A DNA stretch of 64,000 nucleotides from an uncultured Gammaproteobacteria bacterium (GCA_964491185.1 CAZBFH010000001.1:16739-80738); one strand, 5' to 3'. Shown: positions 19,481 through 55,469, counted from the first letter of the stretch. Translations and numbers: made by a program. Notes: generated by a model not told the origin, from the sequence alone.

Positions 19481-22400
19481 CTAGGGCATTATCAAATCTG
19501 AAGTAGGTTTTATTTTTCGATCAACTTCCTCTACATTTCCCCCATCCGTAAATCTAAATACAGGATGCGCTAACGAAGTGCCTGCTGCTTCAATGGCACT
19601 CTTTTCATCTGAGTGAATAAATATTTTCGCATCGTCATTTTTAAATGCGAACCAAACTGCATCAGGAAGTCCAACTGGAAATACCCATGCCTGACCATCT
19701 TTAGTTGGCACATTTACAAAATGGAACTCTGTGTCCACCTGCGACCAATAACTTGTATAAAGTGACTCCATAGAAATAAAGAATCTCTTTGTTTTATTTC
19801 CTGCCTCATGCCAATTAAAGAAAGTGCTTTGATTTTGAATTAAATGAAAAAGGGCAAATACAATTATTACGACGGTTGAAGCCCCCAATGCAATTTCCCG
19901 TCCGCTGTTAAGCAAATATTGATGTAGCTTTTTGAATAGAATTGTAAAAATAAAGACCAACCCCATTGTTGATAGATAACTGTATCTTGAAGTCATATTT
20001 CCCAGACCTAAAAATGGAAGAAGAGATATTACAAAAAACATAAGACCAAATGCCATGATCTTTTTTTCACTCGCTTCAAATAGCTTTGAAAATACTTTAT
20101 AAGCAAAAAATCCTACTAAAACTACCAAAGGAATAATAATTACAAAAATTATTAAATTTTCTCTGGCAAATATTCTCACAGAATTGTAAAAAGATAATGA
20201 CATTGGGCCTATCAAGCCAAGCGAGAAATATCCAAATATGTTTCCGATTATATTGAAAGGTAAATTAAGCGGATCATAACTATAGTCACCGCTAAACCAA
20301 TGACTCTTCGAAACAACTCTAAGAAGCAAATATCCCGCAACTGGAATAAATATCAGGTAGTTCTCAAATTGCTTTGGCAATGTTTTCAGCGATGCTGTGA
20401 ATCCGCTTTTATAAATCTTGTATGCGATCATTAAGGCTGGCGCTACTACTCCTAATTCATGAAACATTAAGGCAAAACAAACACTTAAAATGGCGCCTAC
20501 TAAATAATATATTTTTCTTTTTTCATCCCAAAAAATAAACAGAAGTAATGCTAGAAGCGAGAATACGCCGTTAAAAAGATGTCCAATTGAAGAAATCCAG
20601 AAAATATTTTCAAGTGGTCCACTTAAAACTAGGAATGTGAATGCAGAAAATGCTGCTAGTTTTATATCTTTGAAAATTTTTCTTGCAATGATAAAGAAAA
20701 GGGCAATAGCAGTAAAGTGAAGCATTAAGGAAGACAAATGATAAACAACCTGATTTAGCCAGAAAATTTGATACATAAAGTAGAAATAAATTTTCATTCC
20801 AGGTCTATAGAAAAAACCATCAGAATTTAGAAAATAATTCGTAAATAAATGCACCTGTGAACAATTCGTGCAATCTGCTGCCCAGCGAAGCCAAGTAAAG
20901 TCATCAGCAACAAAATAGTTATTAAGCATTGGTGAAAATAGAACTACGGATGTTATAAAAAGATAAAGAACAATTGCATAACTACTTCCCAACGCTTTCT
21001 TAACTTCATTACTTAAAGTGAAACTATGAACCTGATAAAGCCTGAGAATTCCGAATACAATACCGACTAAAATCCAAAGTAAAAATGCTATCTTTGAAGC
21101 TTCAAATACGTCTATTAATACAGCATTTAAAGACAGTCCTATAACACCCGCTACAAAACCAAGGACGAAACTCTTCGCGAGAGGTGAGTCAATATCAGGA
21201 TATATTTTTTTAACATAAATTCCTAAAATCAGAAATAGAAGAAAGAATGCTAAGAATCCCAAAATTCCAACCTCTCCAAGAATTCTAAGAAAATTATTGT
21301 CTACTGCCAGACTAACAGAACCATAACCACTTCCTATTAAAAGGTTCTTTTTAAATGCTTCAATTGCCCTCGGCCATTCCCCCTGAAATCTAGTTGTAAA
21401 CGAAAGATCGTAAGCAGAGGCTCTCTTAACAATAAAATTTCCCTTTAATATAAGCGCCTGTCCAGACGAACTTGATTGAAGATTCTGAGGAATTTCTATA
21501 AAAAAACTATCTGCTCTTTTAATGACTGGGGAAAGATATAAGTTCGTATATCCAGTTCCCTGCGGCAAATTCTCACCTGTTGAAATATTTACAGCTGTAA
21601 GAATTGGCACTTCTCCGGGTATAAGTCTATAGGGGAGTATTATTGCGTCATCAGGGTCAATAGATTCTTTTTGACTCTCCTTAATGGCATTTGCTAGCTC
21701 TTCTTGATCCCTGACTGTTCTTTGAAGAACTATCTTATCTTTAAAGTACTCCTTAGGGACGAATCTTACATGCCCAACTGATTCACCTGTTGCTGCGTCA
21801 ACCAAAACATCAGCTTCCGAAACGGTACTCTTAAATCTATCAAAAAGCGAAGATTGAAAAGTGACGAAGAAAGTTCCTCCAATTAAAATAACCGGGATTA
21901 GTGCAATAACAAGCTTTCTTTTTTGGAAAAAAAGCAAAAATCCAAGTGAAACAAATAGTACAAAAAAAGAAACACGAGAAACTGTCATTAAAAGAAGCAT
22001 CACTCCCGCAAATGAAATACATGCCAAAATTATTCTGATAATCAAATTTTTCAAACCTAGCGAAAGACTTACCAGGATAGGAATTATTAAAACTAAATAG
22101 GCCGCTAAGTCATAATGACCTGCAAATGTTGAAGGCACACGCGACAATGCTGAAAGAGTAATTGGAGTACCCTTCGCAAACTCTTCATTCATTGTAAGAA
22201 ACGCTGGGAATCCGAGATATTTCTGACCAAAACCATATGCTATTACGCCTATTAATGTAATAACAACCACAGAAACTATAACTGGCATGTGCTTTTTATT
22301 CTTCATGCCTTGATAACCAATGAAAAACAAACTTAGGTACTCTATGTGACGAATTAAACTAAGGAAAGCAACATTTGGATATGCATTTGAAATAGTTGGA

Positions 22401-22753
22401 AAAATAAGAAGAATACCATGAATCGTAGCTACCCCTCCAATTATCCAGAAAGCTAAAATTGGTAAAGTAAGAGGAGTTTTAAGTGTAATTTTCTTTCTGA
22501 CAAGTAACGTTAGCCAAGAAAGAATAACAAATAAAATAACGAAATCCTCGACTCTTATATAAACCCACGTATTCTGTATATCAAGAAGTGGAAGCTTAGG
22601 ATAGAGAGGAATAAATAAAAGCAGGAAAAGACTTTCAAGAAACAAAATGTTTTCCCAAATCCAAGTTAAAGCTTTTCCTGGTTTAGTTTTTAAGAAGCTT
22701 GAGAGCTTGACCATAAGTATTTGTATAATAACTATTATTAGATATCTTACCAA
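19481..22753 (-). CDS. Very large polytopic membrane protein: O-antigen ligase/polymerase (Wzy_C)-like N-terminal half fused to a second multi-TM module
   Basis: 1090 aa. TVSRVSFFVLFV segment resembles the Wzy_C (T.SRg) core. A soluble middle domain is followed by a second TM bundle (about residues 600-1000). The start overlaps the upstream GT2 by about 70 nt. Confidence 0.45.
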   Translation of the reverse strand: MVRYLIIVIIQILMVKLSSFLKTKPGKALTWIWENILFLESLFLLLFIPLYPKLPLLDIQNTWVYIRVEDFVILFVILSWLTLLVRKKITLKTPLTLPILAFWIIGGVATIHGILLIFPTISNAYPNVAFLSLIRHIEYLSLFFIGYQGMKNKKHMPVIVSVVVITLIGVIAYGFGQKYLGFPAFLTMNEEFAKGTPITLSALSRVPSTFAGHYDLAAYLVLIIPILVSLSLGLKNLIIRIILACISFAGVMLLLMTVSRVSFFVLFVSLGFLLFFQKRKLVIALIPVILIGGTFFVTFQSSLFDRFKSTVSEADVLVDAATGESVGHVRFVPKEYFKDKIVLQRTVRDQEELANAIKESQKESIDPDDAIILPYRLIPGEVPILTAVNISTGENLPQGTGYTNLYLSPVIKRADSFFIEIPQNLQSSSSGQALILKGNFIVKRASAYDLSFTTRFQGEWPRAIEAFKKNLLIGSGYGSVSLAVDNNFLRILGEVGILGFLAFFLLFLILGIYVKKIYPDIDSPLAKSFVLGFVAGVIGLSLNAVLIDVFEASKIAFLLWILVGIVFGILRLYQVHSFTLSNEVKKALGSSYAIVLYLFITSVVLFSPMLNNYFVADDFTWLRWAADCTNCSQVHLFTNYFLNSDGFFYRPGMKIYFYFMYQIFWLNQVVYHLSSLMLHFTAIALFFIIARKIFKDIKLAAFSAFTFLVLSGPLENIFWISSIGHLFNGVFSLLALLLFIFWDEKRKIYYLVGAILSVCFALMFHELGVVAPALMIAYKIYKSGFTASLKTLPKQFENYLIFIPVAGYLLLRVVSKSHWFSGDYSYDPLNLPFNIIGNIFGYFSLGLIGPMSLSFYNSVRIFARENLIIFVIIIPLVVLVGFFAYKVFSKLFEASEKKIMAFGLMFFVISLLPFLGLGNMTSRYSYLSTMGLVFIFTILFKKLHQYLLNSGREIALGASTVVIIVFALFHLIQNQSTFFNWHEAGNKTKRFFISMESLYTSYWSQVDTEFHFVNVPTKDGQAWVFPVGLPDAVWFAFKNDDAKIFIHSDEKSAIEAAGTSLAHPVFRFTDGGNVEEVDRKIKPTSDLIMP

Positions 22754-25245: not shown

Positions 25246-25818
25246 TTAGATCGAGGGATAAATTACTTTTATTTTTTCTTTATCAATTTTTAGAATTTCC
25301 TCTATGTCTTTCTTGCTCGATTCTGAAATCGTAAAAACAATACTAGATTCTTTTTTAAGCCACTTAAGTTTTCTTTTTTGAGATGCAACAATATTTGGAG
25401 AGATCAATAGCCTCAAAGGACTAAATTCTGTTTTACTGTGTGTTTCTTCTGGGTATTTGTAAACAATTAAATCATATATAACTGTCGCTTTTTTTGCGCT
25501 TCTTGTAGGCGGTTCTGTCCAGTCAGATGTAATAAATATATCTACATCTCCAATCAACCACTCAATTGGAAGAATATGTAGCCTATTCCAAATAAAATCT
25601 AAAGCAAGAGGTGGAAACTTAAAAGTTTTTATAGTAACCCTTGGACTTTCCTGAACATTAAATAAAGAAAGATCTAAATCTCGTCTTAAAGATGAGAAAA
25701 ATAAAACATATTCATTTTTCGTATCCAGTTTTAGTAGATTCTCAACAAGATTAGCGAGATAATTCGCTACTCCAGTTTTTGAATACACAACTTGGCTAAC
25801 ATCAATTCCTATTTTCAT
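25246..25818 (-). CDS. GT4 N-terminal-domain-only fragment (190 aa). Truncated paralog or gene remnant, possibly a split GT.
   Basis: MKIGIDVSQVVYSKTGVANYLANLVENL resembles the N-terminus of the GT4 at 14881-15987. The ORF ends at IKVIYPSI, exactly where the C-terminal GT-B domain would begin. Its stop TAA is 1 nt before the ATG of the complete GT4 downstream. Confidence 0.45.
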   Translation of the reverse strand: MKIGIDVSQVVYSKTGVANYLANLVENLLKLDTKNEYVLFFSSLRRDLDLSLFNVQESPRVTIKTFKFPPLALDFIWNRLHILPIEWLIGDVDIFITSDWTEPPTRSAKKATVIYDLIVYKYPEETHSKTEFSPLRLLISPNIVASQKRKLKWLKKESSIVFTISESSKKDIEEILKIDKEKIKVIYPSI

Positions 25819-26051: not shown

Positions 26052-27032
26052 TTAACTGGAATATTTTAAGAGAACCTTTGATTCGCTTTCGTTCTTACTG
26101 TTTATATTTAAAACCAAGTCAGCAATGAGCCCTGTAAATCCAGCCTGAAGACCAGAAATAATTAAAAGCATACCTAAAAATAAAAGCGGTCTTCTTCCTA
26201 TGGATTCTCCCTGAAAATGAATAAAAGAAAGATAAAGAAGGATTACGAGACCTAGAAAAACTAACAACCCACCAAAAAATCCAAAAAAATGAAGCGGACG
26301 CTTACTATATTTACTTAAAAATACCATTGTCATCATGTCAGGCATTTGAGTAAGAACTTTTATAGCTCCGTATTTAGATTTTCCCCAGCGTCTTTCATCA
26401 TGAACCACTGGAACCTCAGTTACCCTAAATCCTTCTTGTGCAACCAGAAGCGGGATAAATCTATGCATTCCTCCATATAGATTTACTGACTTTGCAGCTT
26501 CACTTATGTATAGTTTCAATCCACAATTATAATCATGAAGTTTTACTCCCCAGAATGTGGACGCCACCAGATTAAAGACCTTTGAAAAAATAATTTTAGT
26601 AATTGAATCTTTTCTCTCTTTTCTCCAGCCAGAAACCATATCATAACCCTCTTTATGCTTTTCTATTAGCTTGTGGACCTCTGATGGCTTATCTTGAAGA
26701 TCTGCATCCATCGTGACTATCAAATCCCCTTTTGCTTTTTGAAAACCAAATGTCAAAGCTTCTGCTTTTCCATGATTTCGTCTAAATGAATAAATACTAA
26801 TATTTGAATCTTTCTTCTCAAGGTCTTTAATCAAACTCAATGTCGTGTCATTTGAACCATCATCTATAAAAACAATTTCGTATTCTTTAGACAGAATCTT
26901 TGCGTGTTTTGTGAGCTCTTCGTAGAAATGAAGAATACTTTCCTCTTCGTTAAAAACTGGAATAACGTAACTAATCATAATTGCGGATCTAAACCTAATT
27001 TTATCATTTCTGAAGCTTTTATCAAAATGCAC
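26052..27032 (-). CDS. Polyprenyl-phosphate sugar synthase (GtrB/CsbB/DPM1-like GT2 with C-terminal TM hairpin)
   Basis: 326 aa. ISYVIPVFNEEESI..IVFIDDGSNDTT GT2 core plus two C-terminal TM helices (HFFGFFGGLLVFLGLV..LLFLGMLLIISGLQAGFTGLIADLV). The true start may be the internal MISYVIPV. Confidence 0.78.
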   Translation of the reverse strand: MHFDKSFRNDKIRFRSAIMISYVIPVFNEEESILHFYEELTKHAKILSKEYEIVFIDDGSNDTTLSLIKDLEKKDSNISIYSFRRNHGKAEALTFGFQKAKGDLIVTMDADLQDKPSEVHKLIEKHKEGYDMVSGWRKERKDSITKIIFSKVFNLVASTFWGVKLHDYNCGLKLYISEAAKSVNLYGGMHRFIPLLVAQEGFRVTEVPVVHDERRWGKSKYGAIKVLTQMPDMMTMVFLSKYSKRPLHFFGFFGGLLVFLGLVILLYLSFIHFQGESIGRRPLLFLGMLLIISGLQAGFTGLIADLVLNINSKNESESKVLLKYSS

Positions 27033-27043
27033 TAGTTATTTTA

Positions 27044-27071
27044 TTGACAATCTAATAAAAGTATATATAAT
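27044..27071 (+). promoter_or_regulatory. Perfect consensus sigma70 promoter TTGACA-16-TATAAT, 11 nt upstream of the 27083 ATG
   Basis: ttgaca at 27044-27049 and tataat at 27066-27071, read directly. There is no SD sequence before the ATG. Confidence 0.5.
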
Positions 27072-27082
27072 ACTGCTCGAGT

Positions 27083-27619
27083 ATGATAACAGAAGCTGTT
27101 CCGGGCTTAAGACCCTTACACGAAACGCCAATACCAGAAAGAGATAGAATTGAACCTTTACTCCTGGCACTAGGAGTTACAAATGTTATACTTGACTATC
27201 CTTTTCCAAAATCTCCTACAGGAGTGAGCTGGGCATCACCAGGTCATTTAGACGAAAGGGTAAGAACAGCGGGCACTGATGGAATTGAACTAAGAAGATC
27301 TACCAAAAGGATGGGACCCACTCTTAAATACGCCACATACCCAGGCGTCTTTACATCAGCTACGCCTCACTGGGTCGAGCAGGAATTTGGAGAAATTGAA
27401 CATCCATCATATCAAGGAGACGATGCTACTTATACTTTTACAAGAGCAACATTTTCTGAAGGACAATATAGGATCCATACTCTTGTTGAAAGAACAGAAG
27501 GAGACGGCGTAGAAGCAGATTTTTCCGTTAAAGACTTGAGATATTTACTCCGTCCCCCAATAGAAACTGCAAAACAAACGCCTGCATCAAGACTTTCTTG
27601 GGCTGTAAGACAAAGCTAA
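27083..27619 (+). CDS. Orphan hypothetical protein. The only plus-strand gene in the window, with GC markedly higher than its flanks.
   Basis: 178-aa ORF with a non-repetitive, globular-looking sequence. Consensus promoter upstream. Its 3' end overlaps the stop of the convergent 27587-29560 gene by 33 nt. Confidence 0.45.
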   Translation: MITEAVPGLRPLHETPIPERDRIEPLLLALGVTNVILDYPFPKSPTGVSWASPGHLDERVRTAGTDGIELRRSTKRMGPTLKYATYPGVFTSATPHWVEQEFGEIEHPSYQGDDATYTFTRATFSEGQYRIHTLVERTEGDGVEADFSVKDLRYLLRPPIETAKQTPASRLSWAVRQS

Positions 27620-29560
27620 ATTCTTAATTAGGATAGAAATCAAACTTATTAAAACTACAGCACTTATCACTAATCCAATATTTACAAATTCCTGAGGTTT
27701 GTAATAAATTTCGAGGCCATAATTCCCATCTTTTGGCAATCTAAAACTGTTAAGATTTTTCTGATATGCTTCACTTCTTACCTCGAAATCCTCCCCTCTT
27801 GCTACCCAACCACTATCAAATCCTTGAGAAAAAACTAGCAAATCTCCTTTTTTAGCATTTTCTAATTTTAATTTATAAAGCGTAGGATTCTTAAATTCCC
27901 AGGAAATAATTAAGCTTCTATCTAAGTCATCCAAGAGAAGTGGTGCTGAAAAGAGATCTGTCTGGGAATACGTCAGATAAGTTTTAATACCTTCGTCAAT
28001 GCTTGTTCTTTGAAGATAATCAATTTTTTCAATTTTATTTATTACCTTTCTTCTTTCAACTTCACTATATTTTCGATCTTTCAAAAAAATTTCTTCATCT
28101 GGATCGGTTGGAATTATGATAAGTCCTACTGAATACCTAGCTAATTCTTCTTCACTGATTTTTTCTATATTTCTCCCCTTGAATAAAACTTCAGAATCGG
28201 ATGACGGAATTGATGGATCAAAATATCCATACTTTTGTCTCTTTGGGACCCAAAGAACTCTTGAAAAAGAATATTGCGAGGAATTATTCTTAAAATTTTT
28301 CAATTCAGAATTTAACTGAACATAGTCCACTGGAATTTCTTTTGGTTTAAAAATCCCGATTAGGTCACCGCTCCAAAATGGCTTGAGAATTAGGAAAAGA
28401 AAAATAACAAATGCGCCCACAATAAGATATCTAAATTTCTCAAATTTATCAGAAATAGAATTAAGGAAATACGGAATAAGAATGCTAAATGAAATTGCAA
28501 TTAATAAATAAAATTTTGTAGAATCCCTAAACAAAGAAAATCCCGGTAATTTTTCAAATAAAAAAATATAAATATCTCCAAAGGGATCACTTGCTCCCTT
28601 TCCTAAAAAAATGCCCACCAAACCGACAACTACAAAAAATAAAATTTCTTTTTTTGCCTTAAACATTAATGACCCAAAGGCTAAAATTGGAAGAACTAAA
28701 AATTCAGGTCTTTGAAAATAAATTTTCCCAAAAATATTTTCAGGCCAGTTGGGATGAAGAAAAGAAATTGTATTTTCTATTGTCGCAAAGCTTAAAAATT
28801 TTACCCCCGCTACAGACGAATAAGAACCCACGAATTGAGCACTTGACCCTAATATAAATGACATAATAGCTGGTAAAATCCAGTATGAATTTATTGCACC
28901 AGCGATCAAAAAGTTTATTAAAATAAAACTTATTTTTTTTAAGTTTATTTTTTTAATAAAAAACGTGAAGTACAAAAATGCGATTAGAAAAGTGAGCACT
29001 GCTACTCTTGGATCAAGCGCAATAACAAACCCCGATATCAAACAAGAAACAAACAAATTTTTATATGTCGTTTCATCAAATAAATTAATTATTCTTAGTA
29101 AAACTAATGGCGCTAATGCATATGCAAATGCGATTCCAAATTGTCCACCTCCAACTATTAAAAGGATATACGTATTAAATGTGAAAATTATTGAAGACAA
29201 ACTTCTAAACAAATCGTTTTTAATAAAAGGTTTTGAAAATTTAAAAGAAGAAAAGATTGATAAGGCAATAAAAGGCAAAAGCCAAAATATCCTTTGAGAA
29301 AACCACCAAGGAATATCTAACGAATTGGAAATAAAGTAAACAAAATTTGCATATAGATCAATCCACATCGTCTTTAAGGCTGATCCTCCAATTCCTCCAT
29401 TTCCCATGTAATCCCAAGATAAAGACCAGAAAGGAAAATAATCACGAGATTCTCTAAAGAGCAGGGGCCAATCATGAGCCACAATTACATATTTTGAAAG
29501 AAACGGCAAACAAAAAATAATTACAAATACAAGAAGCGGTGTGAGCTTAACTATCCTCAT
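27587..29560 (-). CDS. YfhO-like polytopic GT-C glycosyltransferase with large extracytoplasmic domain and C-terminal TM anchor
   Basis: 657 aa. N-terminal AHDWPLLFRESRDYF loop motif and multi-TM core with GASDPFGDIYIFLFEKLPGFSLFRD. C-terminal SQGFDSGWVARGEDFEV...LEIYYKPQEF followed by a final TM helix. Paralog of 29878-33318 and 59872-61524. Confidence 0.55.
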   Translation of the reverse strand: MRIVKLTPLLVFVIIFCLPFLSKYVIVAHDWPLLFRESRDYFPFWSLSWDYMGNGGIGGSALKTMWIDLYANFVYFISNSLDIPWWFSQRIFWLLPFIALSIFSSFKFSKPFIKNDLFRSLSSIIFTFNTYILLIVGGGQFGIAFAYALAPLVLLRIINLFDETTYKNLFVSCLISGFVIALDPRVAVLTFLIAFLYFTFFIKKINLKKISFILINFLIAGAINSYWILPAIMSFILGSSAQFVGSYSSVAGVKFLSFATIENTISFLHPNWPENIFGKIYFQRPEFLVLPILAFGSLMFKAKKEILFFVVVGLVGIFLGKGASDPFGDIYIFLFEKLPGFSLFRDSTKFYLLIAISFSILIPYFLNSISDKFEKFRYLIVGAFVIFLFLILKPFWSGDLIGIFKPKEIPVDYVQLNSELKNFKNNSSQYSFSRVLWVPKRQKYGYFDPSIPSSDSEVLFKGRNIEKISEEELARYSVGLIIIPTDPDEEIFLKDRKYSEVERRKVINKIEKIDYLQRTSIDEGIKTYLTYSQTDLFSAPLLLDDLDRSLIISWEFKNPTLYKLKLENAKKGDLLVFSQGFDSGWVARGEDFEVRSEAYQKNLNSFRLPKDGNYGLEIYYKPQEFVNIGLVISAVVLISLISILIKNLALSYSPRKS

Positions 29561-29891
29561 TTTTTTTAAAAATATAAATATAAATTCCCTGAAATACTCC
29601 CAGAAAAATAGCTACCATACCATAGAATGCTAACTTTTCAGCGATTAAATCCTGTCCTTTTATTAAAAGGAGTTGACATAAAATTATTAGAACTATCGAA
29701 ATTATATAAACGTATCTATACGGAAATCCTAAAATTGAAATCACTATTACTATACTAAATAAAAAAATTACTTGCGAGTCTAAGAAAATATTAAAGTATG
29801 GTAGGGTCGATAAAAAAACAAAAACAATAGAAAGTCCAAGTAAGAGAATCTTCATATTTTTTGGAGTAATATTATTTTTAATTCTTCCCAT
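29547..29891 (-). CDS. Small 4-TM membrane protein (GtrA-like size and topology)
   Basis: 114 aa, four hydrophobic segments. Lies between two YfhO-like genes. Confidence 0.35.
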   Translation of the reverse strand: MGRIKNNITPKNMKILLLGLSIVFVFLSTLPYFNIFLDSQVIFLFSIVIVISILGFPYRYVYIISIVLIILCQLLLIKGQDLIAEKLAFYGMVAIFLGVFQGIYIYIFKKNEDS

Positions 29892-32800
29892 GTTTTAATT
29901 TTAGCAAGATTAATACAAATACAAATAATGTCACTATGCTTATAATTATTCCTATGTAAAATGCTTTCTGAGGTTCGTAAAAGATTGCTATTTCAAAATC
30001 TCCTGTACCGTCAACATACCATGCATTTGAAAATCCGTTTGACTTAATATGATTAACTTCTGGTATTGGGTTAGTTGTAAATACAGGCACTAAACTTCTA
30101 TCAAATACTCTATCTTCTGATTTTAACTCTTTAATTTCTCCGTTAAAATATTCTCTTTTTACTTCATCTTCACTATCCCTGCGATTAAAGACATATGCCT
30201 TCCATCCCGTACTAAAGCTATTTCCAAAATTAAGAAAAAATGGACCTCTTGCATTAGTCACATTGACAACATAATGCGTGGGATTAATCTTTTTAAATGA
30301 GATATTAGGAATATTTTGATCCTCATTTTTTATATTTCTAAATAGATAAATTTTTGGTGAAAGCTTCCTGGTCAGTTTTAGATTCCTAATTGAAATATTG
30401 TTTTTATTTTTAGAAATATTTTTAACAATTAAATTTATGCCATTTGGACTTATACTATTATTTTTTAACTCCTGAGAAACAAGTTCCCAATCAGAATTTT
30501 CATATACATTAAACCTTGAATTTACAGACATGTCATGATCTGTTAAAGTTTCAATTATGGCCTCAGAAGATGTTTTATATTCAAATGTTAATAGATATTT
30601 ATCGTACTCACCAATGTCTTTTAAATTTAGTCTAATACTGTGGCCATTAGCTAAAGAGAACTCATCCAGTCTCTGATCCAAGACTTCACTAGATTCATCA
30701 TTAAGATTAACCCTTAACCTATGCTCACCTTTATCAAGAGTGATCGGACTTTCTAGTTCTATTTCTTTTTCATCCAGCAACATCGATGTAATATTTAATT
30801 TGTCGAAATTCTTAAGCTCATAACTATCCTTTTCCTCAATATTAAAAACTAGATTTTTCTCTTTCAGTGATCTAGGACGCCAAACATCTTTCTCAATCAA
30901 GGAAATATTTGCGTTAACAAATTCCGTTAGGCTAGATACCACTGATCTCAAGCCGTTATCATCTGTATAAAGTGTTTCTAGTAATTCTTTCTGTGAATAC
31001 AGATAAGCGGCTAATTTATATTTATATTTATCATTTTGAAGTCCTTCTAACTGATTAGATCCTTTAAGCGCATTTCCGATCAACTCTTTGTATTCCTGAC
31101 TCAAGACCTGAAGCTTTAATTCATTTTTCTTAGAGCTTACTTGAGACTGATAAAAAATGCCTTCAAATTCAGAAATTCTTGCATGTGAAAACGCTAGATT
31201 TAGATCAATTTTCTGTGCGGGGTCAGTAACTTGAGATCTCAACTTATTTTCCTTACTTATCTTGAATCGATAGAAAATAGATCCAGGCAAAACATTAGCT
31301 TTGGGTACTAATAGATTTATCCTCATTGACTCGTACTCCCGGTCAGAACATAAGATACACTCTGGCTTATTATAAATTTGATTACTAATTTTGTTAATTA
31401 TTCCCTGCTTGCCAGCATTTTCCACATCCTCATTAATCGATAATATTCTTTCCTGTTTTTCATTAGAAATTAGATCTAAGCTACTGTCTAATTCAAGATT
31501 AGAGCTAATTATTTTAAGCGGAGAGTAAAAAAGCGGAAGATAATAAGAAGAATTTACATTTAAAATTTCCCATTCACCAAATATTTTATCTGATTTTATT
31601 TCTTTGTTTTCTAATAATTCTTTTTTTTCTGATTGAATTATATTATCTCTATTTGATTTATTACTATAGATGATATCGTTTCTGACTAAGATTTTATTTA
31701 TTCCGGTTCTACCTAAGAGTTTCGTAAAGGATTCTGAATTGTTTTTTTCAGTTGCTTTATAGATTTGATTAACAATCTCGGGAGCCACTGTATCATTGGA
31801 AACTACTGAATTGTTCAGCGAAAGAAACGATAATGGCTCAAGACTCCAAAATCCCCAACCATAACTATCTACTTTATAGAGTGGGTCCAATTTCGGAATA
31901 AGGATTAACCTATTACTTGAGTCCAAACTATTCAAATATGTGTTTGAATCGTAAACATAATTTGGTACTGAAACTTTTGTTACAAACGGTTTATTGAATT
32001 GAAAAAAGTTAGAATTAAAAAATGGAAAATGGTAAACAAGAAGTATTAATATGACAAAAAATCCAACCATATTAAACATAATTTTATTCCGGATAAACTT
32101 ATTGAGAATTAAATTTAAATAAAAACTTGAAAGAAGAATTAATGAAAACCAAACCGCAGGACCAAATTTATAAATAGCGGATCTAAAAATAGCAAATCCC
32201 GGAATATGTTCAACTAAAAAAATATAAATAAACCCAAAAGGAGGATGTGATCCACCCGCAAACACGATCCCAACAAATAAAACGATAAAAAGTAAATGTA
32301 TTAAATCCTGCTGTTTTTTTATCATATCTTTTCTGTTTTGAAAAAATAATCCAAAAAGTATTAACAGTATTGGAACAAAACTCAAAACAATTAGAGCTGG
32401 ATTATTTATGAAATGATATGAGAATGAGTGACTTGGGTTATCATACCAATCAGGAATTCCCTGAAGCCTAATTAGATTTAGTACACTCGCATACTTATTT
32501 ATGGCGTTCTCCCATGCAAGTATTCCAGATATTCCTCCAATTGAAGAAAGTACACCCGAGTAACCATTTAATGCAGTGTAAATCTGAGGCAAAATAAAGT
32601 AAGCATTAATTGATAAAAATCCTAAGGCGAATAGAGCCACTGTTTTAAATGTATGAACTATTGCTTTAAATCCCGATTCTCTAATATTTAAAATTGTTAC
32701 GAAAACGAACGTTAATCCGTAAACAAGAATTAAAGATCCATAAAGCGGGGGTGAACCCCCACCATTCAAAAAAAATGAAAGAATAGAAAAGAGAATTGTT

Positions 32801-33318
32801 CCTTTTACCAATGAGTACTGCTTATTTAATGTTTTATAAATTATAAGAAGTCCCAAGGGAAGTGCTGCAAATAAAGAAAACTTTGCTCTCTCCGCGATAA
32901 ACCATGCCTGTAAAATAAAGAAATTGTACATGTGGAAAATGCTGCCAAAAATTCTCATAATCCAAAATTCTTTTTGAGGGAAAAAATTTCGTATGAATAT
33001 ATACATAGAAATTCCCATCACAAAAAACCAGAAAACGAAAGCCGCTTTTTGTCCCATAGCTAACGAGCCTAAAATAACGCTAAAGAAAGTTTCCGGGAAC
33101 TGAATAACAAGAAAGCCTTTAAGTATCCCCCAGTCAGTTCCGAAGTTGTGAAGAAAGTTCCATGAGTAAAATAAATTTATTAAATGATTGAGATAATTAA
33201 GCCTGAATCCTGAATCATGGCCTATTATTGCTTCTCCGTTTCGAAGCCACCACAACGGAGTGAGACTTGCCAAAAAAACCAGTAAAATTTCCTTGTGTTT
33301 CTTAAAATTTTTAATCAT
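29878..33318 (-). CDS. Giant YfhO-like GT-C membrane protein (1146 aa) with expanded Asn/Ser/Lys-rich extracytoplasmic region and C-terminal TM anchor
   Basis: N-terminal GHDSGFRLNYLNHL and GGSHPPFGFIYIFLVEHIPGFAIFRS align with the 657-aa paralog. C-terminal FGNSFSTGWKAYV...FEIAIFYEPQKAFYIGIIISIVTLFVFVLILL. Confidence 0.55.
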   Translation of the reverse strand: MIKNFKKHKEILLVFLASLTPLWWLRNGEAIIGHDSGFRLNYLNHLINLFYSWNFLHNFGTDWGILKGFLVIQFPETFFSVILGSLAMGQKAAFVFWFFVMGISMYIFIRNFFPQKEFWIMRIFGSIFHMYNFFILQAWFIAERAKFSLFAALPLGLLIIYKTLNKQYSLVKGTILFSILSFFLNGGGSPPLYGSLILVYGLTFVFVTILNIRESGFKAIVHTFKTVALFALGFLSINAYFILPQIYTALNGYSGVLSSIGGISGILAWENAINKYASVLNLIRLQGIPDWYDNPSHSFSYHFINNPALIVLSFVPILLILFGLFFQNRKDMIKKQQDLIHLLFIVLFVGIVFAGGSHPPFGFIYIFLVEHIPGFAIFRSAIYKFGPAVWFSLILLSSFYLNLILNKFIRNKIMFNMVGFFVILILLVYHFPFFNSNFFQFNKPFVTKVSVPNYVYDSNTYLNSLDSSNRLILIPKLDPLYKVDSYGWGFWSLEPLSFLSLNNSVVSNDTVAPEIVNQIYKATEKNNSESFTKLLGRTGINKILVRNDIIYSNKSNRDNIIQSEKKELLENKEIKSDKIFGEWEILNVNSSYYLPLFYSPLKIISSNLELDSSLDLISNEKQERILSINEDVENAGKQGIINKISNQIYNKPECILCSDREYESMRINLLVPKANVLPGSIFYRFKISKENKLRSQVTDPAQKIDLNLAFSHARISEFEGIFYQSQVSSKKNELKLQVLSQEYKELIGNALKGSNQLEGLQNDKYKYKLAAYLYSQKELLETLYTDDNGLRSVVSSLTEFVNANISLIEKDVWRPRSLKEKNLVFNIEEKDSYELKNFDKLNITSMLLDEKEIELESPITLDKGEHRLRVNLNDESSEVLDQRLDEFSLANGHSIRLNLKDIGEYDKYLLTFEYKTSSEAIIETLTDHDMSVNSRFNVYENSDWELVSQELKNNSISPNGINLIVKNISKNKNNISIRNLKLTRKLSPKIYLFRNIKNEDQNIPNISFKKINPTHYVVNVTNARGPFFLNFGNSFSTGWKAYVFNRRDSEDEVKREYFNGEIKELKSEDRVFDRSLVPVFTTNPIPEVNHIKSNGFSNAWYVDGTGDFEIAIFYEPQKAFYIGIIISIVTLFVFVLILLKLKHGKN

Positions 33319-46603: not shown

Positions 46604-49096
46604 CTAAAGCTTTATGCGAGGCTTTAAAGTAACTGAATTTATTAAAATCTCAAACGGCCCGTCACCAAAGTCTAATGAGACATTTGTAAAATATTTTTTT
46701 AGATAATCACCACTTCCAGAATAAATTTCCCCTTCCGGTATTTCAGCATTTATTTTTTGATTTGCCAAACTAAATTTAAATGGAAAATATAAGTATTGAT
46801 AGTTCTGAACAGATCCTGTTTTATTCGTTTCCCACGTTAATTTTGCCCAAAAAGTATCAAGTCCGATTTTATGCAAATATTCTAGGTCTTGATGTCCATT
46901 CATAAAATCAAACATATTTACCATATCCTTGAATAATCTACTCCTATCACTATAAAGACCGACTATATCATTTGAAGAAGAATTGATAACTTCGAATTCA
47001 TCAATAGCTACAAAATCTCCTCCTGAAGTTGTATGAATCTCCATTTTTACGTATCTCGCAATAACAGGATCGAAGGAATCAATTTTTTCAAAAACAGTAG
47101 AATTTTTTACATCTATAACTTTTTTCCAATTCTTGTTGTCCCTAGAAACTGAAACTGAATATGTTGCAGGAATTCTCGTAGATTTCTCTAATGATCCCCA
47201 TGACACTGCAGAAATTTCCTTCTCCATTCCCAAATCCACCTGTATCCAAGGCACGAATGAGTCTGCAATCCACATGGATCTCTTACCCGGATTCCCATCA
47301 ATTAAATTTTTAGGCAAAACGTGAAAGAAGGGTTCTCCCTCTCTTTGAGACATTGTGTATGCTGTTTTTACTTTCACAGTTTTAAGATACTCATTTCTCT
47401 GAAGAGAGTAATTTGCTAATGCTCTAAACTTCTGGCTGTCTGGATTTCTTCCAATAACACTCAAAACCTCAAAAGCACTTAAATCCATATCCAAATTATA
47501 TGGCAAATCGACAACTGGACCCTGGAAATTAGAACTCTTGTAAACATTGTCAAATTTATTAATACTGATTTGATAATTTTTTTGGTTTAAGAGTAATTTT
47601 TTTGTTCTTTCAGTTTCATTAATTAATCCATTACTCAAACTGTGATCTAAAAAAACGACATCATTAATATTCACCTTGCCATTTTTTACTTTTGAAAGAA
47701 CCGCAATAAGCTGAGATTCAACTCTAAAAGGCTCATCTTCAAGATTTGAGTACTTTTTATCTTTAATCGTAAACCACTCCAAAAGATAATCTCCTAAAGC
47801 AGGAGCATGCGGATATAAATAAAAAGTAGTATTGTCAGAAAGTTTTGGAAAATATGAATTAAATTTTGTATAAAAACCTTTGGCTGGCTTGTAAAAATCT
47901 ACATACACTTCCCTTTCAATTTTCCATATTAAAATAAGATTAACAACCACAACTACTGCAACGAATAATTTTAATAGCTTTAAATTCGTAAAATAATTGA
48001 TTAAAATTATTCCCAAGAGAACACTGGTTCCTAAGAATGCAAAATACCTATAACGCATTGTGTTGTATTCATATGCTCGCGATAAAACCTCCGGAGTACT
48101 AGGAACAGCAAGTGAAACAAATACTGAGAACAGCCCTAACCAAATTAAGAAAAATAAAAATATTCTAAAATATGCTTTAGATTTTTTCAGTTTTAGCCAA
48201 ATCAATCCAAATAATCCAACGGTCATCCATCCAACAGCTGGAAAAAAGTATTTATTCATTGTTTCGTAATAAACAAACTTCGAACCTTGTTCCCTTAAAT
48301 AGTTCATAAGATCATATGGAATAATTTGCGGTGGAATTAGTTTTCCAATCGTGAGAAATGCAGCCTTAGCATACTCAAAATACAATCCATCACTCATAAA
48401 CCTCATTTGGAGCTTTACATTCCCATCAGCTGTATCTCCCGGAGTACCCCCATATAAGGATCTAATTAAAAAGAATCCCAGGATTATTAACGCGAATGGA
48501 ATTTGTCTTTTTACAATTCCCAAGATTTCTTTTTGTGAAAAAATATTTTTTGTAAAAATGACATCCATTGCAAAAATTAGAGGAATTAATACAATTCCTG
48601 TCTCTCTGACAAAAAATCCCAAAAAAGCTGAAAGAAGAGAAAGAACAAGCATTCTTTTATCATTTTTTTCTTTATATTTAAAAAATGCAGTTAAGCTTAT
48701 AAGTAAACAGATTAGGAGTAATGGATAATAAGAATTAAAGCTTCCCCAAGTGAGAACGTCGTTATAACAAGTGGTGACAGTGAAAATTAACGAGGAAATA
48801 AATGCAAGTTGTCTCTTTTTCGAAATCGTATATATAAATTTATAGAATAGAAGATAGGCAATTACTTGAACAATTAAAGCTGTTAAATACCATCCCCAAG
48901 GATTCCAACCAAATATTTTCCAGTCCAGAAAATATAAAAATCCATGACCTTTGATTAAATTTACTACCGTGTATGGAGCAATACCCGTTAACCACGTAGC
49001 TTCATACGCCTTAAAAAACCAAAAATTTAGTGTTGGGAACCAAGCTAGTACTCCAAGAAACGCAATAATTAAGTAATTCCTTTTATCTGGATTCAT
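46604..49096 (-). CDS. Polytopic membrane protein (GT-C-like) with C-terminal extracytoplasmic F5/8 type C (discoidin) carbohydrate-binding domain
   Basis: 830 aa. About 13 N-terminal TM helices. C-terminal NLIDGNPGKRSMWIADSFVPWIQVDLGMEKEISAVSWGS matches the discoidin signature (W..........WIQVDLG....I..V). Confidence 0.5.
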   Translation of the reverse strand: MNPDKRNYLIIAFLGVLAWFPTLNFWFFKAYEATWLTGIAPYTVVNLIKGHGFLYFLDWKIFGWNPWGWYLTALIVQVIAYLLFYKFIYTISKKRQLAFISSLIFTVTTCYNDVLTWGSFNSYYPLLLICLLISLTAFFKYKEKNDKRMLVLSLLSAFLGFFVRETGIVLIPLIFAMDVIFTKNIFSQKEILGIVKRQIPFALIILGFFLIRSLYGGTPGDTADGNVKLQMRFMSDGLYFEYAKAAFLTIGKLIPPQIIPYDLMNYLREQGSKFVYYETMNKYFFPAVGWMTVGLFGLIWLKLKKSKAYFRIFLFFLIWLGLFSVFVSLAVPSTPEVLSRAYEYNTMRYRYFAFLGTSVLLGIILINYFTNLKLLKLFVAVVVVVNLILIWKIEREVYVDFYKPAKGFYTKFNSYFPKLSDNTTFYLYPHAPALGDYLLEWFTIKDKKYSNLEDEPFRVESQLIAVLSKVKNGKVNINDVVFLDHSLSNGLINETERTKKLLLNQKNYQISINKFDNVYKSSNFQGPVVDLPYNLDMDLSAFEVLSVIGRNPDSQKFRALANYSLQRNEYLKTVKVKTAYTMSQREGEPFFHVLPKNLIDGNPGKRSMWIADSFVPWIQVDLGMEKEISAVSWGSLEKSTRIPATYSVSVSRDNKNWKKVIDVKNSTVFEKIDSFDPVIARYVKMEIHTTSGGDFVAIDEFEVINSSSNDIVGLYSDRSRLFKDMVNMFDFMNGHQDLEYLHKIGLDTFWAKLTWETNKTGSVQNYQYLYFPFKFSLANQKINAEIPEGEIYSGSGDYLKKYFTNVSLDFGDGPFEILINSVTLKPRIKL

Positions 49097-54360: not shown

Positions 54361-55469
54361 TGGTTTGCAAATTCTAAAAATTTATCAGTCGTATTTTCCC
54401 AAGTATGTTTTTTTCTCTCATCAATTGCTCCCTTTTGAAGTTTTAAGTACAAATCATCGCTAGTTAAAATTTTCTGGATGTTTTCAGAGAGATTTTCAGG
54501 GTTATTTTGACTACAAATTATTCCATTAATATTTTCCTTAACAATATCCCTAAGTCCAGGAACATTATAAACGACAGCTGGAGTCGCTCTAGCGCCCGCT
54601 TCGTGCACCGTAAGTCCCCATCCTTCTTTTACTGAGGGGGCGATCAATAAATGAGCTCTTGTTAAAAGTTCTTCCTTCTTTTCTTCACTCACAAAGTCTA
54701 AAAATTTAACATTTTCTAAAAGATCTAAATCCTTAACTAATTTTTTAAGCTCATTGACAAAATAATCTTCTCCGCGCCCTATTATCCAAAGTTTGATTTC
54801 TGGAATATTTTCTTTAATCAGTCCTACAGCCTTAATTGCATCTATTACTCCCTTTGTTCTAGAAAGCCGCGAAACAAAAATGATAGTTTTGTCTTTTTCT
54901 TTCCTAGGAAGTGCTGTTACCACATTTGAGTTTGATCCCATCGGAATAACTTTCACCTGTGATTTCGAAAATCCATTCTTTTCAATTTCTATTTTTGAAG
55001 ACTGCGAAATCGTAATAATAGGTATATTTTTATAAAAAATTGGGTAAATTTTTTCAATTATTTTTCCTAAAATATTGAAAGGGAATCCAACAGCAATATT
55101 CCAAAGATCTCCAGCTATTTCACAAATTAAGGCGACTTTTCTCTCCCGAACATAAAGAGTGGTAAAGAAAGGTATTCCATGCACTTCATCAATTACTAAA
55201 TCAACTTTCCCTTGAAAATCTTTTTTATAAAGCTTAAAGGCGAGGAAATGAACTGATTTAAAAAGTCTTCTCGCATCTGGATCACCAGTTCTAATTATCC
55301 TAACGCCATCTATCATCTCCTCTTCTTTTGCATCAGGAAACTTCGCGCTAATTTGCGTTACTGTATGTCCTTTCTTTACGAAACCAGCCGCCAACTCTTG
55401 TGTCAGTATTTCCGCTCCACCTGATAAAGGATTTTTAATATCTCTCCAGTTTAAAATTAATATTTTCAT
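54357..55469 (-). CDS. Glycosyltransferase family 4
   Basis: 370 aa. MKILILNWRDIKNPLSGGAEI N-terminus. C-terminal EGWGLTVHEAGARATPAVV. Confidence 0.8.
   Translation of the reverse strand: MKILILNWRDIKNPLSGGAEILTQELAAGFVKKGHTVTQISAKFPDAKEEEMIDGVRIIRTGDPDARRLFKSVHFLAFKLYKKDFQGKVDLVIDEVHGIPFFTTLYVRERKVALICEIAGDLWNIAVGFPFNILGKIIEKIYPIFYKNIPIITISQSSKIEIEKNGFSKSQVKVIPMGSNSNVVTALPRKEKDKTIIFVSRLSRTKGVIDAIKAVGLIKENIPEIKLWIIGRGEDYFVNELKKLVKDLDLLENVKFLDFVSEEKKEELLTRAHLLIAPSVKEGWGLTVHEAGARATPAVVYNVPGLRDIVKENINGIICSQNNPENLSENIQKILTSDDLYLKLQKGAIDERKKHTWENTTDKFLEFANQ

Follow-up and report, generated by a model that had tools for sequence, protein, structure and literature searches.

An AftD-like GT-C protein with a multidomain ectodomain, its shorter relative and a small conserved neighbour in a Microgenomates glycan cluster

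Closest described systems

GT-C enzymes with a C-terminal carbohydrate-binding module (CBM) have a precedent (PMC11127046), as do transmembrane glycosylation systems built from several components (PMC8035078). AftD (arabinofuranosyltransferase D) of the Mycobacteriales (PF11847 GT-C_AftD, formerly DUF3367; PDB 6W98/6WBX/6WBY), whose homologs were earlier reported from Actinobacteria only, offers a precedent for both architecture and CBMs; beyond its TM12 comes a distinct bundle of four helices, TM13-16, of which TM13 lines the putative donor groove (10.1101/2019.12.22.885152). In the window (the whole stretch of DNA that was analysed, 64,000 nucleotides) we found an AftD-type (PF11847) protein, B, encoded beside a shorter relative, A, and a small membrane protein, S, with a third GT-C protein, C, farther away (Table 1). 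The host of A and B is a Microgenomates (Patescibacteria/CPR) bacterium, without arabinogalactan.

We regard B as the counterpart of mycobacterial AftD. It matches PF11847 with 33.1 bits (cut-off 26; E 2.1e-8) over residues 287-582, 11 of the 41 members of its family match the model at E up to 0.01, and AftD is its top structural match and the nearest solved fold. Identity is only 8-13% in structural alignments, and the sequence likeness is too low for phmmer or a family profile to find the solved AftD in the PDB. Compared by place in the sequence only, the invariant D35, E270, R379, K384 and D484 of B, candidate catalytic residues, occur at positions similar to those of the essential K39, D41, E251, K361 and D474 of AftD. 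The AftD ectodomain carries three CBMs and a structural beta-sandwich, whereas the periplasmic part of B comprises alpha/beta structure that includes a CxxC subdomain, a five-helix DUF5667-like bundle, one CBM-like domain and one C-terminal sandwich. AftD ends in TM12 and TM13-16 with an ACP-binding region; B has one C-terminal TM, lacks the ACP-binding region, and is followed by the separate 4-TM partner gene S. AftD uses decaprenyl-phosphate-arabinofuranose as donor and arabinan as acceptor; the putative donor synthase beside A is ArnC/GtrB-like.

MmpA (NCgl2761/Rv0226c; NF053599), the nearest relative of A that has a name, is annotated as a lipid-delivery factor (PMC8698533) and is not known to be a glycosyltransferase. 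It resembles A in its approximately 10-11 TM segments, extracytoplasmic domain and last TM, in a model match that takes in a loop and TM segments (A residues ~288-422), and in being a core-only AftD relative whose gene shares a locus with aftD, as that of A does with B. The MmpA model is matched by all 54 A-family members (best E 8.4e-12; A itself 34.3 bits, E 1e-8) and by 2 of 41 giants, at scores (about 34 bits for A) far under the equivalog cut-off of 210 bits, so that A is a distant relative and no equivalog. Against PF11847, A scores 16.1 bits, under the cut-off of 26, and 15 of the 54 family members match at E up to 0.01; A is both MmpA-like and AftD-core-like. It differs from MmpA in an extra YfhO-type GW beta-sandwich, and MmpA acts in the export of trehalose mycolates, for which we know of no pathway in CPR bacteria.

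EmbA/B/C and the GT136 enzyme ORF12 of Citrobacter youngae likewise combine a GT-C core for lipid-linked sugars, as predicted for B, with an extracytoplasmic CBM that binds the polymer under modification. They belong to other GT-C subfamilies, and the CBM-like domain of B has a putative helix-bundle stalk on one side and, on the other, a further beta-sandwich that leads to a TM anchor.

YfhO/PTPS_related GT-C proteins take part in three-component (CsbB-GtcA-YfhO) teichoic-acid glycosylation. The initial annotation called A, B and C YfhO-like, a label that suits C in the strict Pfam sense (PF09586, 45.6 bits, cut-off 28.5, E 4.7e-12; PF10131, 50.3 bits, cut-off 26.4, E 1.7e-13) and does not suit A and B, neither of which matches PF09586 at E up to 0.1; 2 of the 54 A-family members do so at E up to 0.01. 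Further likenesses to these systems are the end-to-end alignment of the A-family profile with the C family, and the GtrB/CsbB-like GT2 that adjoins A. As differences, no GtrA/GtcA-family flippase was detected, and teichoic acid cannot be assumed as the acceptor in CPR bacteria.

Table 1. Position of genes and protein regions in the window.
Feature	Coordinates	Strand	Evidence or remark
GT2, two C-terminal TM segments, ArnC/GtrB/PgfS-like	26052..27032	-	PF00535
A, short paralog, 657 aa	27587..29560	-	ORF call
S, small 4-TM protein, 114 aa	29547..29891	-	between A and B
B, giant, 1146 aa, AftD-like GT-C, multidomain ectodomain, C-terminal TM anchor	29878..33318	-	ORF call
B 1-435, GT-C transmembrane core	32014..33318	-	helices, invariant residues
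B 33-39, GHDSGFR loop	33202..33222	-	
B 360-379, PFGFIYIFLVEHIPGFAIFR loop	32182..32241	-	
B 436-548, first alpha/beta extracytoplasmic subdomain, common to A	31675..32013	-	hhalign, secondary structure
B 549-660, second alpha/beta subdomain, invariant C654-x-x-C657	31339..31674	-	
B 683-811, five-helix antiparallel bundle, DUF5667-like	30886..31272	-	
B 820-1000, beta-sandwich, carbohydrate-binding-module type	30319..30861	-	
B 1005-1114, C-terminal beta-sandwich with invariant GW (W1039), common to A and C	29977..30306	-	
B 1116-1144, single C-terminal TM anchor	29887..29973	-	hydropathy and predicted helix
PMT_2-like GT-C, 553 aa	33311..34972	-	PF13231 E 9.8e-4, under cut-off
Wzx-like protein	57534..58817		Polysacc_synt E 8.4e-5, under cut-off
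C, 550 aa, YfhO/PTPS_related GT-C	59872..61524	-	PF10131 and PF09586

Gene order and kinship of A, B and C

The 657-, 1146- and 550-aa reading frames were all found where they had been annotated, on the minus strand. By ORF coordinates, S overlaps the stop of B and the start of A by 14 nt each. The order PMT_2-like gene, giant, small gene, short paralog, GT2 synthase, GT4N, GT4, hexapeptide transferase, GT2 and 1090-aa protein is kept across Gottesman-, Levy-, Roizman- and Woesebacteria. In roughly half of the related loci the gene directly upstream of the giant is PMT_2-like, and the GT2 synthase directly follows the short paralog in 14 of 49 (L001 being additional, on the same contig as L008) and occurs elsewhere in the fetched locus in 13 more. 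In the window this GT2 matches PF00535 (2.3e-32) and, among NCBIfam models, the ArnC-type PRK10714 (4.5e-50) and PgfS (1.9e-44), both under their equivalog cut-offs, with TM-like segments beginning at residues 245 and 282. A putative membrane-anchored GT-A polyprenyl-phosphate-sugar synthase is accordingly encoded next to a GT-C protein, which is the arrangement expected of three-component systems. No recognised flippase family was found in the module. The module sits inside a glycan cluster of approximately 60 kb that holds rhamnose-pathway genes, an aminotransferase, methyl- and acetyltransferases, many GT2/GT4 genes and several more GT-C genes; Wzx-like and Wzy-like matches in the cluster are weak.

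S, previously seen as a mere separator of A and B, is a conserved partner of the long giants: an ORF of 99-177 aa with 3-5 TM adjoins 29 of the 33 giants of at least 1075 aa, as against none of 13 shorter forms. Such an ORF is also present beside giants at loci without the short paralog, and at the tandem-giant locus L046 each of the two copies has its own. The family conserves two motifs, (L/I)PY(L/F)N, which follows TM1, and AE..G...Y, which precedes TM4. In size and topology S is like GtrA; it matches nothing in Pfam, GtrA included, its family shows no similarity to PDB chains up to E 10, and it has no similarity to GT-C TM regions.

The likeness of A and B is far above chance. BLASTP aligns them over 213 aa at 33% identity (E 7e-17), spanning PFGxIYIFLxExxPGFxxFR, and again in the C-terminal module (A 552-646 and B 1006-1140; 26% over 135 aa, E 2e-6), while hhalign joins the two families over 488 columns (99.9%, E 5e-35). 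The earlier reading of A and B as diverged duplicates is thereby borne out, and the two are true, ancient paralogs, each with a separate set of orthologs at 31-77% identity. The duplication was not a recent local one, as had been supposed: the order of A and B is fixed across many Microgenomates lineages, and their split is older than the divergence of several of these.

C stands farther apart. BLASTP gave nothing significant between C and A or C and B (best E 0.054 and 8.3), and hhalign of C against the A family is positive over 488 columns end to end (98%, E 1.4e-13), a remote alignment that lines up the loop motif, the GW module and the anchor and spans the counterpart of the C-terminal sandwich of B. 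Against B, hhalign covers only the N-terminal 126 columns (89%, E 2.2e-6). The proposed family of three paralogs stands for A and B; C is related at the superfamily level only, as a distant relative and no close paralog. All three families keep the HD loop, with D30 invariant and H29 outside the conserved columns in A, D35 invariant and H34 nearly so in B, and both H33 and D34 invariant in C. The C-terminal GW motif is likewise common to all (its invariant Trp is W585, W1039 and W482 in A, B and C) and precedes a final hydrophobic anchor (627-645, 1121-1139 and 523-541, respectively). The literal PFG.IYIFL.E.PGF..FR motif that had been ascribed to all three is absent from C, which has PFSKFIWQNVPLVSYIQFPWR instead. 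A, B and C form one superfamily of GT-C membrane proteins. They have in common the Asp of an N-terminal, putatively catalytic loop, a conserved motif in a periplasmic loop and, ahead of the TM anchor, a C-terminal beta-sandwich.

Domain architecture and the insert of the giant

A and B have Lys-rich termini and a predicted N-terminal block of TM helices, followed by an ectodomain and a final TM; in A these are the GT-C core, an alpha/beta subdomain, the GW beta-sandwich and the anchor. The core is the best-conserved region of B, with a mean identity of 53% across the family and G33, D35, G37, E270, P360, G362, R379 and K384 invariant in the alignment; the corresponding list for the A family is D30, H269, P270, P273, E274, N275, R345, D346 and K349. 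By hhalign, A 1-486 aligns with B 1-548. The first alpha/beta subdomain has a mean identity of 44%, with D484 and D548 invariant, and the second one of only 21%. W1039, N1098 and W1100 are invariant in the C-terminal sandwich, and hydropathy in the anchor peaks at 3.01 (residues 1121-1139). The giants examined have exactly one C-terminal TM-like segment, or none at the threshold used.

In both BLASTP and hhalign alignments, B 549-1005 stands opposite A 487-551. A large extracytoplasmic expansion does set B apart from A, as had been noticed; its size is about 410 and not about 500 residues (B ~595-1005, a boundary read from consensus sequences and not computed). The description of this insert as coiled and of low complexity does not hold, for its entropy (3.2-3.9 bits in 40-residue windows) equals that of the rest of B, and its richness in N, S, K, E and L is the normal composition of soluble domains in a genome of 33% GC. 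It is a confidently folded (pLDDT 85.8), family-conserved multidomain module. Its first part is the alpha/beta subdomain with the invariant CxxC, inside which the giant-specific expansion starts by the same reading of the consensus; the DUF5667-like bundle of five helices and a beta-sandwich of CBM4/6/35/36-like type complete it. The bundle may be a stalk or spacer. In the predicted structure, the beta-jelly-roll of B matches solved CBMs of the CBM4/9 and CBM6/35/36 types, so that we class it as a sugar-binding-type domain, a putative glycan binder. At the sequence level, B gave nothing significant against CBM Pfam models, 3 of 41 B homologs match PF02018 CBM_4_9 (best 3.5e-5), and the B family profile reaches E 0.26 with a CBM4 laminarinase. 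A helix bundle together with a CBM-like sandwich agrees with what was first guessed, a spacer or binding domain. Identity in the insert is 18-22%, as against 53% in the core, a divergence 2-3 times faster than that of the catalytic core.

Proposed role and alternative readings

Building on the homology, fold, domain architecture, conservation and synteny described above, we infer a donor, an acceptor, catalysis and roles for the ectodomain and S. A and B would be ancient paralogous GT-C glycosyltransferases on the outer face of the cytoplasmic membrane, using lipid-linked sugars, with the B ectodomain holding the acceptor; we give this reading a probability of roughly 0.7. The adjacent membrane-anchored GT2 would charge polyprenyl phosphate with the sugar of a nucleotide sugar, and the lipid-linked sugar would then be flipped, with S or the Wzx-like protein as flippase candidates. 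The GT-C cores of A and B would pass the sugar to a cell-surface glycopolymer made by the cluster, by means of the Asp in the first loop (A D30, B D35) together with the PFG...PGF..FR loop; the candidate catalytic residues are conserved in both families. The rigid ectodomain of B, with its CxxC subdomain, five-helix stalk and CBM-type sandwich, may hold or measure a polymeric acceptor, after the model of the CBMs of AftD, the Emb proteins and the GT136 enzymes, and we propose that its fast divergence reflects changing acceptor glycans.

The single TM at the end of B lends itself to another reading, a doubtful one, in which S (N-in, 4 TM, C-in) replaces TM13-16 of AftD and completes the lipid-donor groove, the enzyme being a B-S heteromer. 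Where AftD has TM12 and then a four-helix bundle with TM13 at the putative donor groove (10.1101/2019.12.22.885152), B closes with one TM, and four helices are encoded by the translationally overlapped gene behind it; the close association of S with long giants, its independence of the short paralog, its doubling at L046 and the PY(L/F)N at the outer end of its TM1 agree with this. On the other hand, no PDB chain, AftD included, resembles the S family at E up to 10, giant and S are fused in none of the 49 giants examined, and no such partner accompanies the short paralog, YfhO-type enzymes or the 13 giants of lesser length. A flippase like GtrA or an accessory protein like GacJ (PMC8035078) would also suit the size and topology of S. 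Glycosylation of proteins by A and B (pilins, S-layer or other surface proteins), in the manner of PMT, STT3 or PglB, is unlikely, given that the best match, AftD, extends polysaccharides, that the ectodomain has a CBM-type fold and that the cluster, with its rhamnose genes, GT2/GT4 genes and weak Wzx-/Wzy-like matches, resembles a polysaccharide assembly locus.

It is quite unlikely that A, B or both are non-catalytic scaffolds or lipid/glycolipid delivery factors with an ectodomain that docks proteins and not glycans. Both families keep the invariant first-loop Asp and charged residues of the kind usual in the loops of GT-C active sites, a polyprenyl-phosphate sugar synthase is a conserved neighbour, the beta-sandwich of the ectodomain matches CBMs and not protein-interaction folds, and the mycolate pathway is, to our knowledge, absent from CPR bacteria. 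The authors of a 2026 preprint remark, too, on a Foldseek resemblance of MmpA to glycosyltransferases (10.64898/2026.07.31.741767). In favour of such a role, the whole A family is MmpA-like, MmpA being annotated as a trehalose-lipid delivery protein and suggested as the membrane anchor of a complex (PMC8698533), the tight pairing of giant and S makes complexes plausible, and the AftD-TmaT interaction is non-enzymatic (same preprint). Least probable, and very unlikely, is the reading of three YfhO-family paralogs that arose by local duplication, the giant with a low-complexity spacer. In its favour, all three have the HD loop, similar motifs in a periplasmic loop and the GW module plus anchor, C is a bona fide YfhO/PTPS_related protein, and two A-family members touch the YfhO model. 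However, A and B do not match that model, B passes the AftD-type one and has AftD as its best structural match, BLASTP does not link C to A or B, the insert is normal in entropy, confidently folded and conserved family-wide, and the A/B split is older than the divergence of several Microgenomates lineages. This reading is largely refuted by these results.

Under the preferred reading of A and B as glycosyltransferases, C would be a separate YfhO/PTPS_related GT-C for another step. Its homologs in Patescibacteria have 45-78% identity, and some carry the NCBI name "6-pyruvoyl-tetrahydropterin synthase-related".

Relationship of the three GT-C-like proteins

The reading frames of the giant protein B, its short paralog A, the small protein S encoded between them and the more distant C were all confirmed where the initial annotation had placed them (see table). 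The genes around this locus lie on the minus strand, and the single plus-strand gene in the window is a 178-aa ORF. S overlaps both the B stop and the A start by 14 nt, which suggests that B, S and A are translationally coupled. According to crude hydropathy and to the AF2 model, A, B and C share a single layout: after a Lys-rich N-terminus come TM helices grouped in a block, then a soluble region, a last TM helix and a short basic tail. Judging from the positive-inside rule and from solved GT-C enzymes, the soluble region is probably extracytoplasmic. The proteins of the window are singletons, coming from a single NCBI contig.

Features of the glycan cluster (window positions) and predicted domains of B (residues)
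Feature	Position	Strand	Mean identity to window protein	Remarks
1090-aa membrane protein	19481..22753	-		weak Wzy_C/O-antigen-ligase match (0.0053)
Complete GT4, 377 aa	24111..25244	-		directly after the GT4 N-domain ORF
190-aa ORF	25246..25818	-		GT4 N-terminal domain only; immediately upstream of the complete GT4
GT2 synthase	26052..27032	-		
178-aa ORF	27083..27619	+		fills the gap between A and the GT2 synthase
A, 657 aa	27587..29560	-		
S, 114 aa	29547..29891	-		four hydrophobic segments
B, 1146 aa	29878..33318	-		
C654-x-x-C657 of B	31348..31359	-		
830-aa protein	46604..49096	-		PMT_2-type GT-C core (3.6e-6), F5/8 type C domain (1.7e-16)
444-aa PMT_2-type GT-C	55466..56800	-		follows the 243-aa GT2
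243-aa GT2	56797..57528	-		related to polyprenyl-phosphate sugar synthase (phmmer 2e-16)
C, 550 aa	59872..61524	-		
TM core (AF2)	B 1-435		53%	
Two alpha/beta subdomains (AF2)	B 436-660		44% (first), 21% (second)	
Five-helix bundle (AF2)	B 683-811		22%	
CBM-like beta-sandwich (AF2)	B 820-1000		18%	
C-terminal beta-sandwich (AF2)	B 1005-1114		37%	
TM helix (AF2)	B 1116-1144			

Sequence comparison argues clearly that A and B are homologous and true paralogs. BLASTP aligned them with 33% identity over 213 residues (E 7e-17), spanning DPFGDIYIFLFEKLPGFSLFRD / PPFGFIYIFLVEHIPGFAIFRS, and again over the C-terminal GW module and anchor (26% identity, 135 residues, E 2e-6), while profiles of the two families (54 A-type and 67 B-type homologs) aligned A 1-486 with B 1-548 over 488 columns (probability 99.9%, E 5e-35). 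The relationship of C is more distant: its best BLASTP match to A has an E-value of 0.054, and BLASTP gave no match to B. Compared as profiles, the C and A families can be aligned over their whole length (98%, E 1.4e-13, 488 columns), a stretch that takes in the loop motif (PFSKFIWQNVPLVSYIQFPWR in C) as well as the YFPGW beta-module and the TM anchor that follows it; for the C and B families the alignment is limited to the N-terminal 126 columns, which include the HD loop (89%, E 2.2e-6). Because these alignments cover the HD loop, the loop motif and the GW module, the three motifs on which the initial annotation had founded a single family are real signatures of a superfamily. The pairwise alignments that it proposed nevertheless divide that family, since A and B are joined clearly by BLASTP and by profiles, whereas C is joined to either at the profile level only and is a distant cousin.

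The name YfhO-like, given to all three, holds for C but not for A and B. C is a YfhO/PTPS_related GT-C by its Pfam matches (PTPS_related 1.7e-13, YfhO 4.7e-12, each above cut-off). Its homologs (C itself at 59872..61524, minus strand) are named '6-pyruvoyl-tetrahydropterin synthase-related protein' by NCBI, after Pfam PF10131; this name is misleading, as C is a polytopic GT-C-like membrane protein. B matches PF11847 GT-C_AftD above cut-off (2.1e-8) and no YfhO model in Pfam, and A matches PF11847 weakly (0.0028). At E <=0.01 this family was matched by 15/54 A members and 11/41 B members, YfhO by two of the 54 A members. All 54 matched the NCBIfam model NF053599 ('MmpA family trehalose lipid delivery protein'; best E 8.4e-12, window A 1e-8), with scores that are all far below the 210-bit equivalog cut-off, as against only 2 of the 41 giants in which Pfam and NCBIfam matches were counted (the B alignment and profile comprise 67). 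A is thus a distant MmpA-like, AftD-core-like protein. The observation made in the initial annotation is in this sense partly confirmed, and its interpretation partly supported.

The giant protein and its ectodomain

The AF2 model of B, computed from the 67-sequence alignment, is confident (pLDDT 86.6, pTM 0.82). Its closest solved structures are three AftD entries (Foldseek E 1.4e-13 to 1.3e-12, whole-chain TM-score 0.46). Among comparisons with the PDB, this link came from fold searches only: no GT-C match was found among PDB sequences by phmmer of A, B and C or with profiles of the B and S families. A resemblance of B to Cry/Vip3 toxins gave TM-scores of 0.07-0.13 in Foldseek and was set aside as a generic combination of helix bundle and beta-sandwich. 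AftD has 11 TM helices of the GT-C fold, an alpha/beta periplasmic domain, three CBMs, shown to bind long branched arabinans, and a structural beta-sandwich, followed by TM12 and a separate ACP-binding TM13-16 bundle (10.1101/2019.12.22.885152). Set beside this list of domains, the model of B has the general plan of AftD but not its details: the two agree in Pfam match and fold, and differ in architecture, B being without the three CBMs, TM13-16 and ACP binding. B probably works like AftD. MmpA, a membrane protein of 474-543 residues in Corynebacterineae, has about 10-11 TM helices, an extracytoplasmic domain and a last TM helix; the first 668 residues of AftD are homologous to it, mmpA is encoded near aftD, and according to the literature MmpA has no homologs outside Corynebacterineae (PMC8698533; 10.64898/2026.07.31.741767).

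In BLASTP and profile alignments B 549-1005 stands opposite A 487-551, and from consensus sequences read by eye the expansion proper probably covers about residues 595-1005, roughly 410 residues. This insert had been described as low-complexity and coiled, and neither description survives. Its Shannon entropy is the same as that of the rest of B, its fold in the AF2 model is confident, and it is conserved family-wide, being found along the full length of homologs with 31-50% overall identity. Modelled alone, as had been suggested, B 545-1005 again folds confidently (pLDDT 85.8). Sequence evidence agrees weakly with the predicted domains: PF18915 DUF5667, on which no papers were found in the literature, was matched at the helix bundle by 28 of 41 giant homologs, PF02018 CBM_4_9 by three (best 3.5e-5), and the best PDB match of the family profile is a CBM4 at a weak E of 0.26. 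C654 and C657, in an extracytoplasmic alpha/beta subdomain, are the sole invariant cysteines of the giant family; they might be joined in a disulfide, act as a redox motif or bind a metal.

As the identities in the table show, sequence change in the insert is much faster than in the catalytic part of B. A phmmer search of B 660-1005 against 1.84 billion representatives retrieved 29 proteins, all of them the same giants at the same position or short fragments, and no occurrence outside the giant family; the module is therefore specific to that family. In the representative search, matches to shorter giant homologs were confined to the half of the query that holds the helix bundle, which suggests that these sub-giants are without the CBM-like domain.

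The small protein and gene order in related loci

A scan for giants in other genomes, another of the checks proposed in the initial annotation, recovered 49 loci with one genome taken per species. Those informatively named belong to Gottesman-, Levy-, Roizman-, Woese- and Dojkabacteria and 'Microgenomatus', and named homologs of the window proteins come from Patescibacteria, Microgenomates, Levybacteria and Roizmanbacteria. Many third-party (TPA) MAG records among L002-L048 titled 'uncultured Gammaproteobacteria' or 'Pseudomonadales' carry the Microgenomates-type locus. Their GC is low where checked (L018, 0.32); the labels are doubtful and look like placeholders or errors.

Profile HMMs run over all ORFs of these loci found the short paralog directly downstream of the giant in 29 of them. 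The fullest conserved order, corresponding to window 34972 down to 19481, reads PMT_2-like GT-C, giant, small, short, GT2 synthase, GT4 N-domain ORF, GT4, hexapeptide acyltransferase, GT2 and 1090-aa membrane protein. Given this conservation, the A/B duplication is old and the arrangement fixed, so that a recent local tandem duplication is not upheld. Tandem pairs of full-length giants occur in L032, L035 and L046. The pair formed by the GT4 N-domain ORF and the complete GT4 recurs in many related loci and thus looks like a conserved two-gene arrangement, not a pseudogene. In several Microgenomates loci the syntenic block closes, on its downstream side, with the 1090-aa protein, which may be a polymerase or a ligase bearing a large ectodomain.

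S goes with the giant and not with A. Among giants of at least 1075 aa with downstream sequence available, 29 of 33 have behind them an ORF of 90-200 aa that contains three or more TM segments and nearly always (28/29) bears a P[YF]xN-type motif, as against none of 13 shorter giants (893-1055 aa). S-type ORFs are present in loci without A, and each tandem giant of L046 has its own small 4-TM gene. The family conserves (L/I)PY(L/F)N after TM1 and AE..G...Y before TM4. It found no Pfam family (24 members scanned), no PDB chain in a profile search and no GT-C TM region by hhalign against the B and C families, and a single weak YfhO match (E 0.0024) was not reproduced in other members. Identification of S as GtrA, an SMR-type protein, AftD TM13-16 or a detached piece of a GT-C core found no support in these searches. 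Fusion of giant and S, which would have served as Rosetta-stone evidence, occurs in none of 49 giants examined. In L017, L019-L023, L025-L030 and L044 sub-giants abut the short paralog directly, with no small 4-TM gene.

The GC-richer gap at 27033..27586 was searched for an RNA gene, but neither Rfam, at gathering and at E-value thresholds, nor ARAGORN found one; it holds instead the conserved 178-aa plus-strand ORF (GC 0.43 vs 0.33 for the window). Its counterpart in L018 (6904..7443) has the same place and the same opposite orientation, with 72% amino acid identity, and substitutions by codon position of 35/30/84 indicate purifying selection on the frame. The ORF is absent from the other loci fetched in the scan and has no Pfam, NCBIfam or Rfam match.

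A proposed glycosylation module and its surroundings

The 554-nt gap separates A from its direct downstream neighbour, a GT2 with a pair of TM segments in its C-terminal part. [quoted passage not shown] In the best-supported model, of which we infer every catalytic and binding step, the GT2 synthase would make a polyprenyl-phosphate sugar, the lipid-linked sugar would be flipped, and A and B, acting outside the membrane, would add the sugar to a surface glycopolymer that the cluster makes and that the stalk and CBM-like head of B may grip as the CBMs of AftD do.

The AftD-like giant/short pair reveals no new principle; GT-C enzymes that use lipid-sugar donors and carry CBM ectodomains are already known. 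The giant described here is AftD-like but specific to CPR bacteria; its ectodomain is distinct, it has a small partner of its own, and it is paired with an MmpA-like paralog. The AftD/MmpA pair is thought to be tied to the mycobacterial envelope. Relatives of both were placed in Actinobacteria by the literature (10.1101/2019.12.22.885152; PMC8698533), a range that our results extend. A wider reading, to which we give about one chance in five, is that the AftD/MmpA pair represents one case of an older GT-C module of two enzymes, fixed in CPR Microgenomates as well, that the CPR giant is a heteromer with a dedicated 4-TM subunit in place of AftD TM13-16, and that the adjacent GT2 feeds the short MmpA-like paralog, itself an active polyprenyl-phosphate-sugar transferase. 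If so, a biochemical function would be assigned to the enigmatic, essential MmpA family, and Microgenomates would make a branched wall polysaccharide whose late-stage extension, outside the cytoplasm, is AftD-like; genomic context does hint that MmpA-type proteins are glycosyltransferases.

CPR/Patescibacteria envelopes are, to our knowledge, almost uncharacterised, and a literature search for GT-C enzymes or YfhO in CPR bacteria found no paper. The conserved module of about 12 genes, all of whose proteins are annotated 'hypothetical', places an AftD-like giant and an MmpA-like short paralog beside a lipid-sugar synthase, and offers a concrete, testable model of surface glycopolymer decoration or extension in Microgenomates. 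The ectodomain of helix bundle and CBM, which evolves fast, is a candidate determinant of glycan specificity; as these Microgenomates are episymbionts, it may have a part in contacts between cells or with a host as well.

Elsewhere in the window there are genes for rhamnose-pathway-like enzymes, a DegT aminotransferase, methyl- and acetyltransferases and many GT2 and GT4 proteins, and some products match Wzx-type (Polysacc_synt) and Wzy-type models weakly, below threshold. At least four further PMT_2-type GT-C genes are present, one fused to an F5/8 type C lectin-like domain; this 830-aa protein (discoidin, galactose-binding-like domain) is the cluster's second GT-C with a lectin-like ectodomain. 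With the 243-aa GT2 and the 444-aa GT-C forming a second GT-A/GT-C pair, the cluster seems to hold several lipid-sugar-dependent glycosylation steps.
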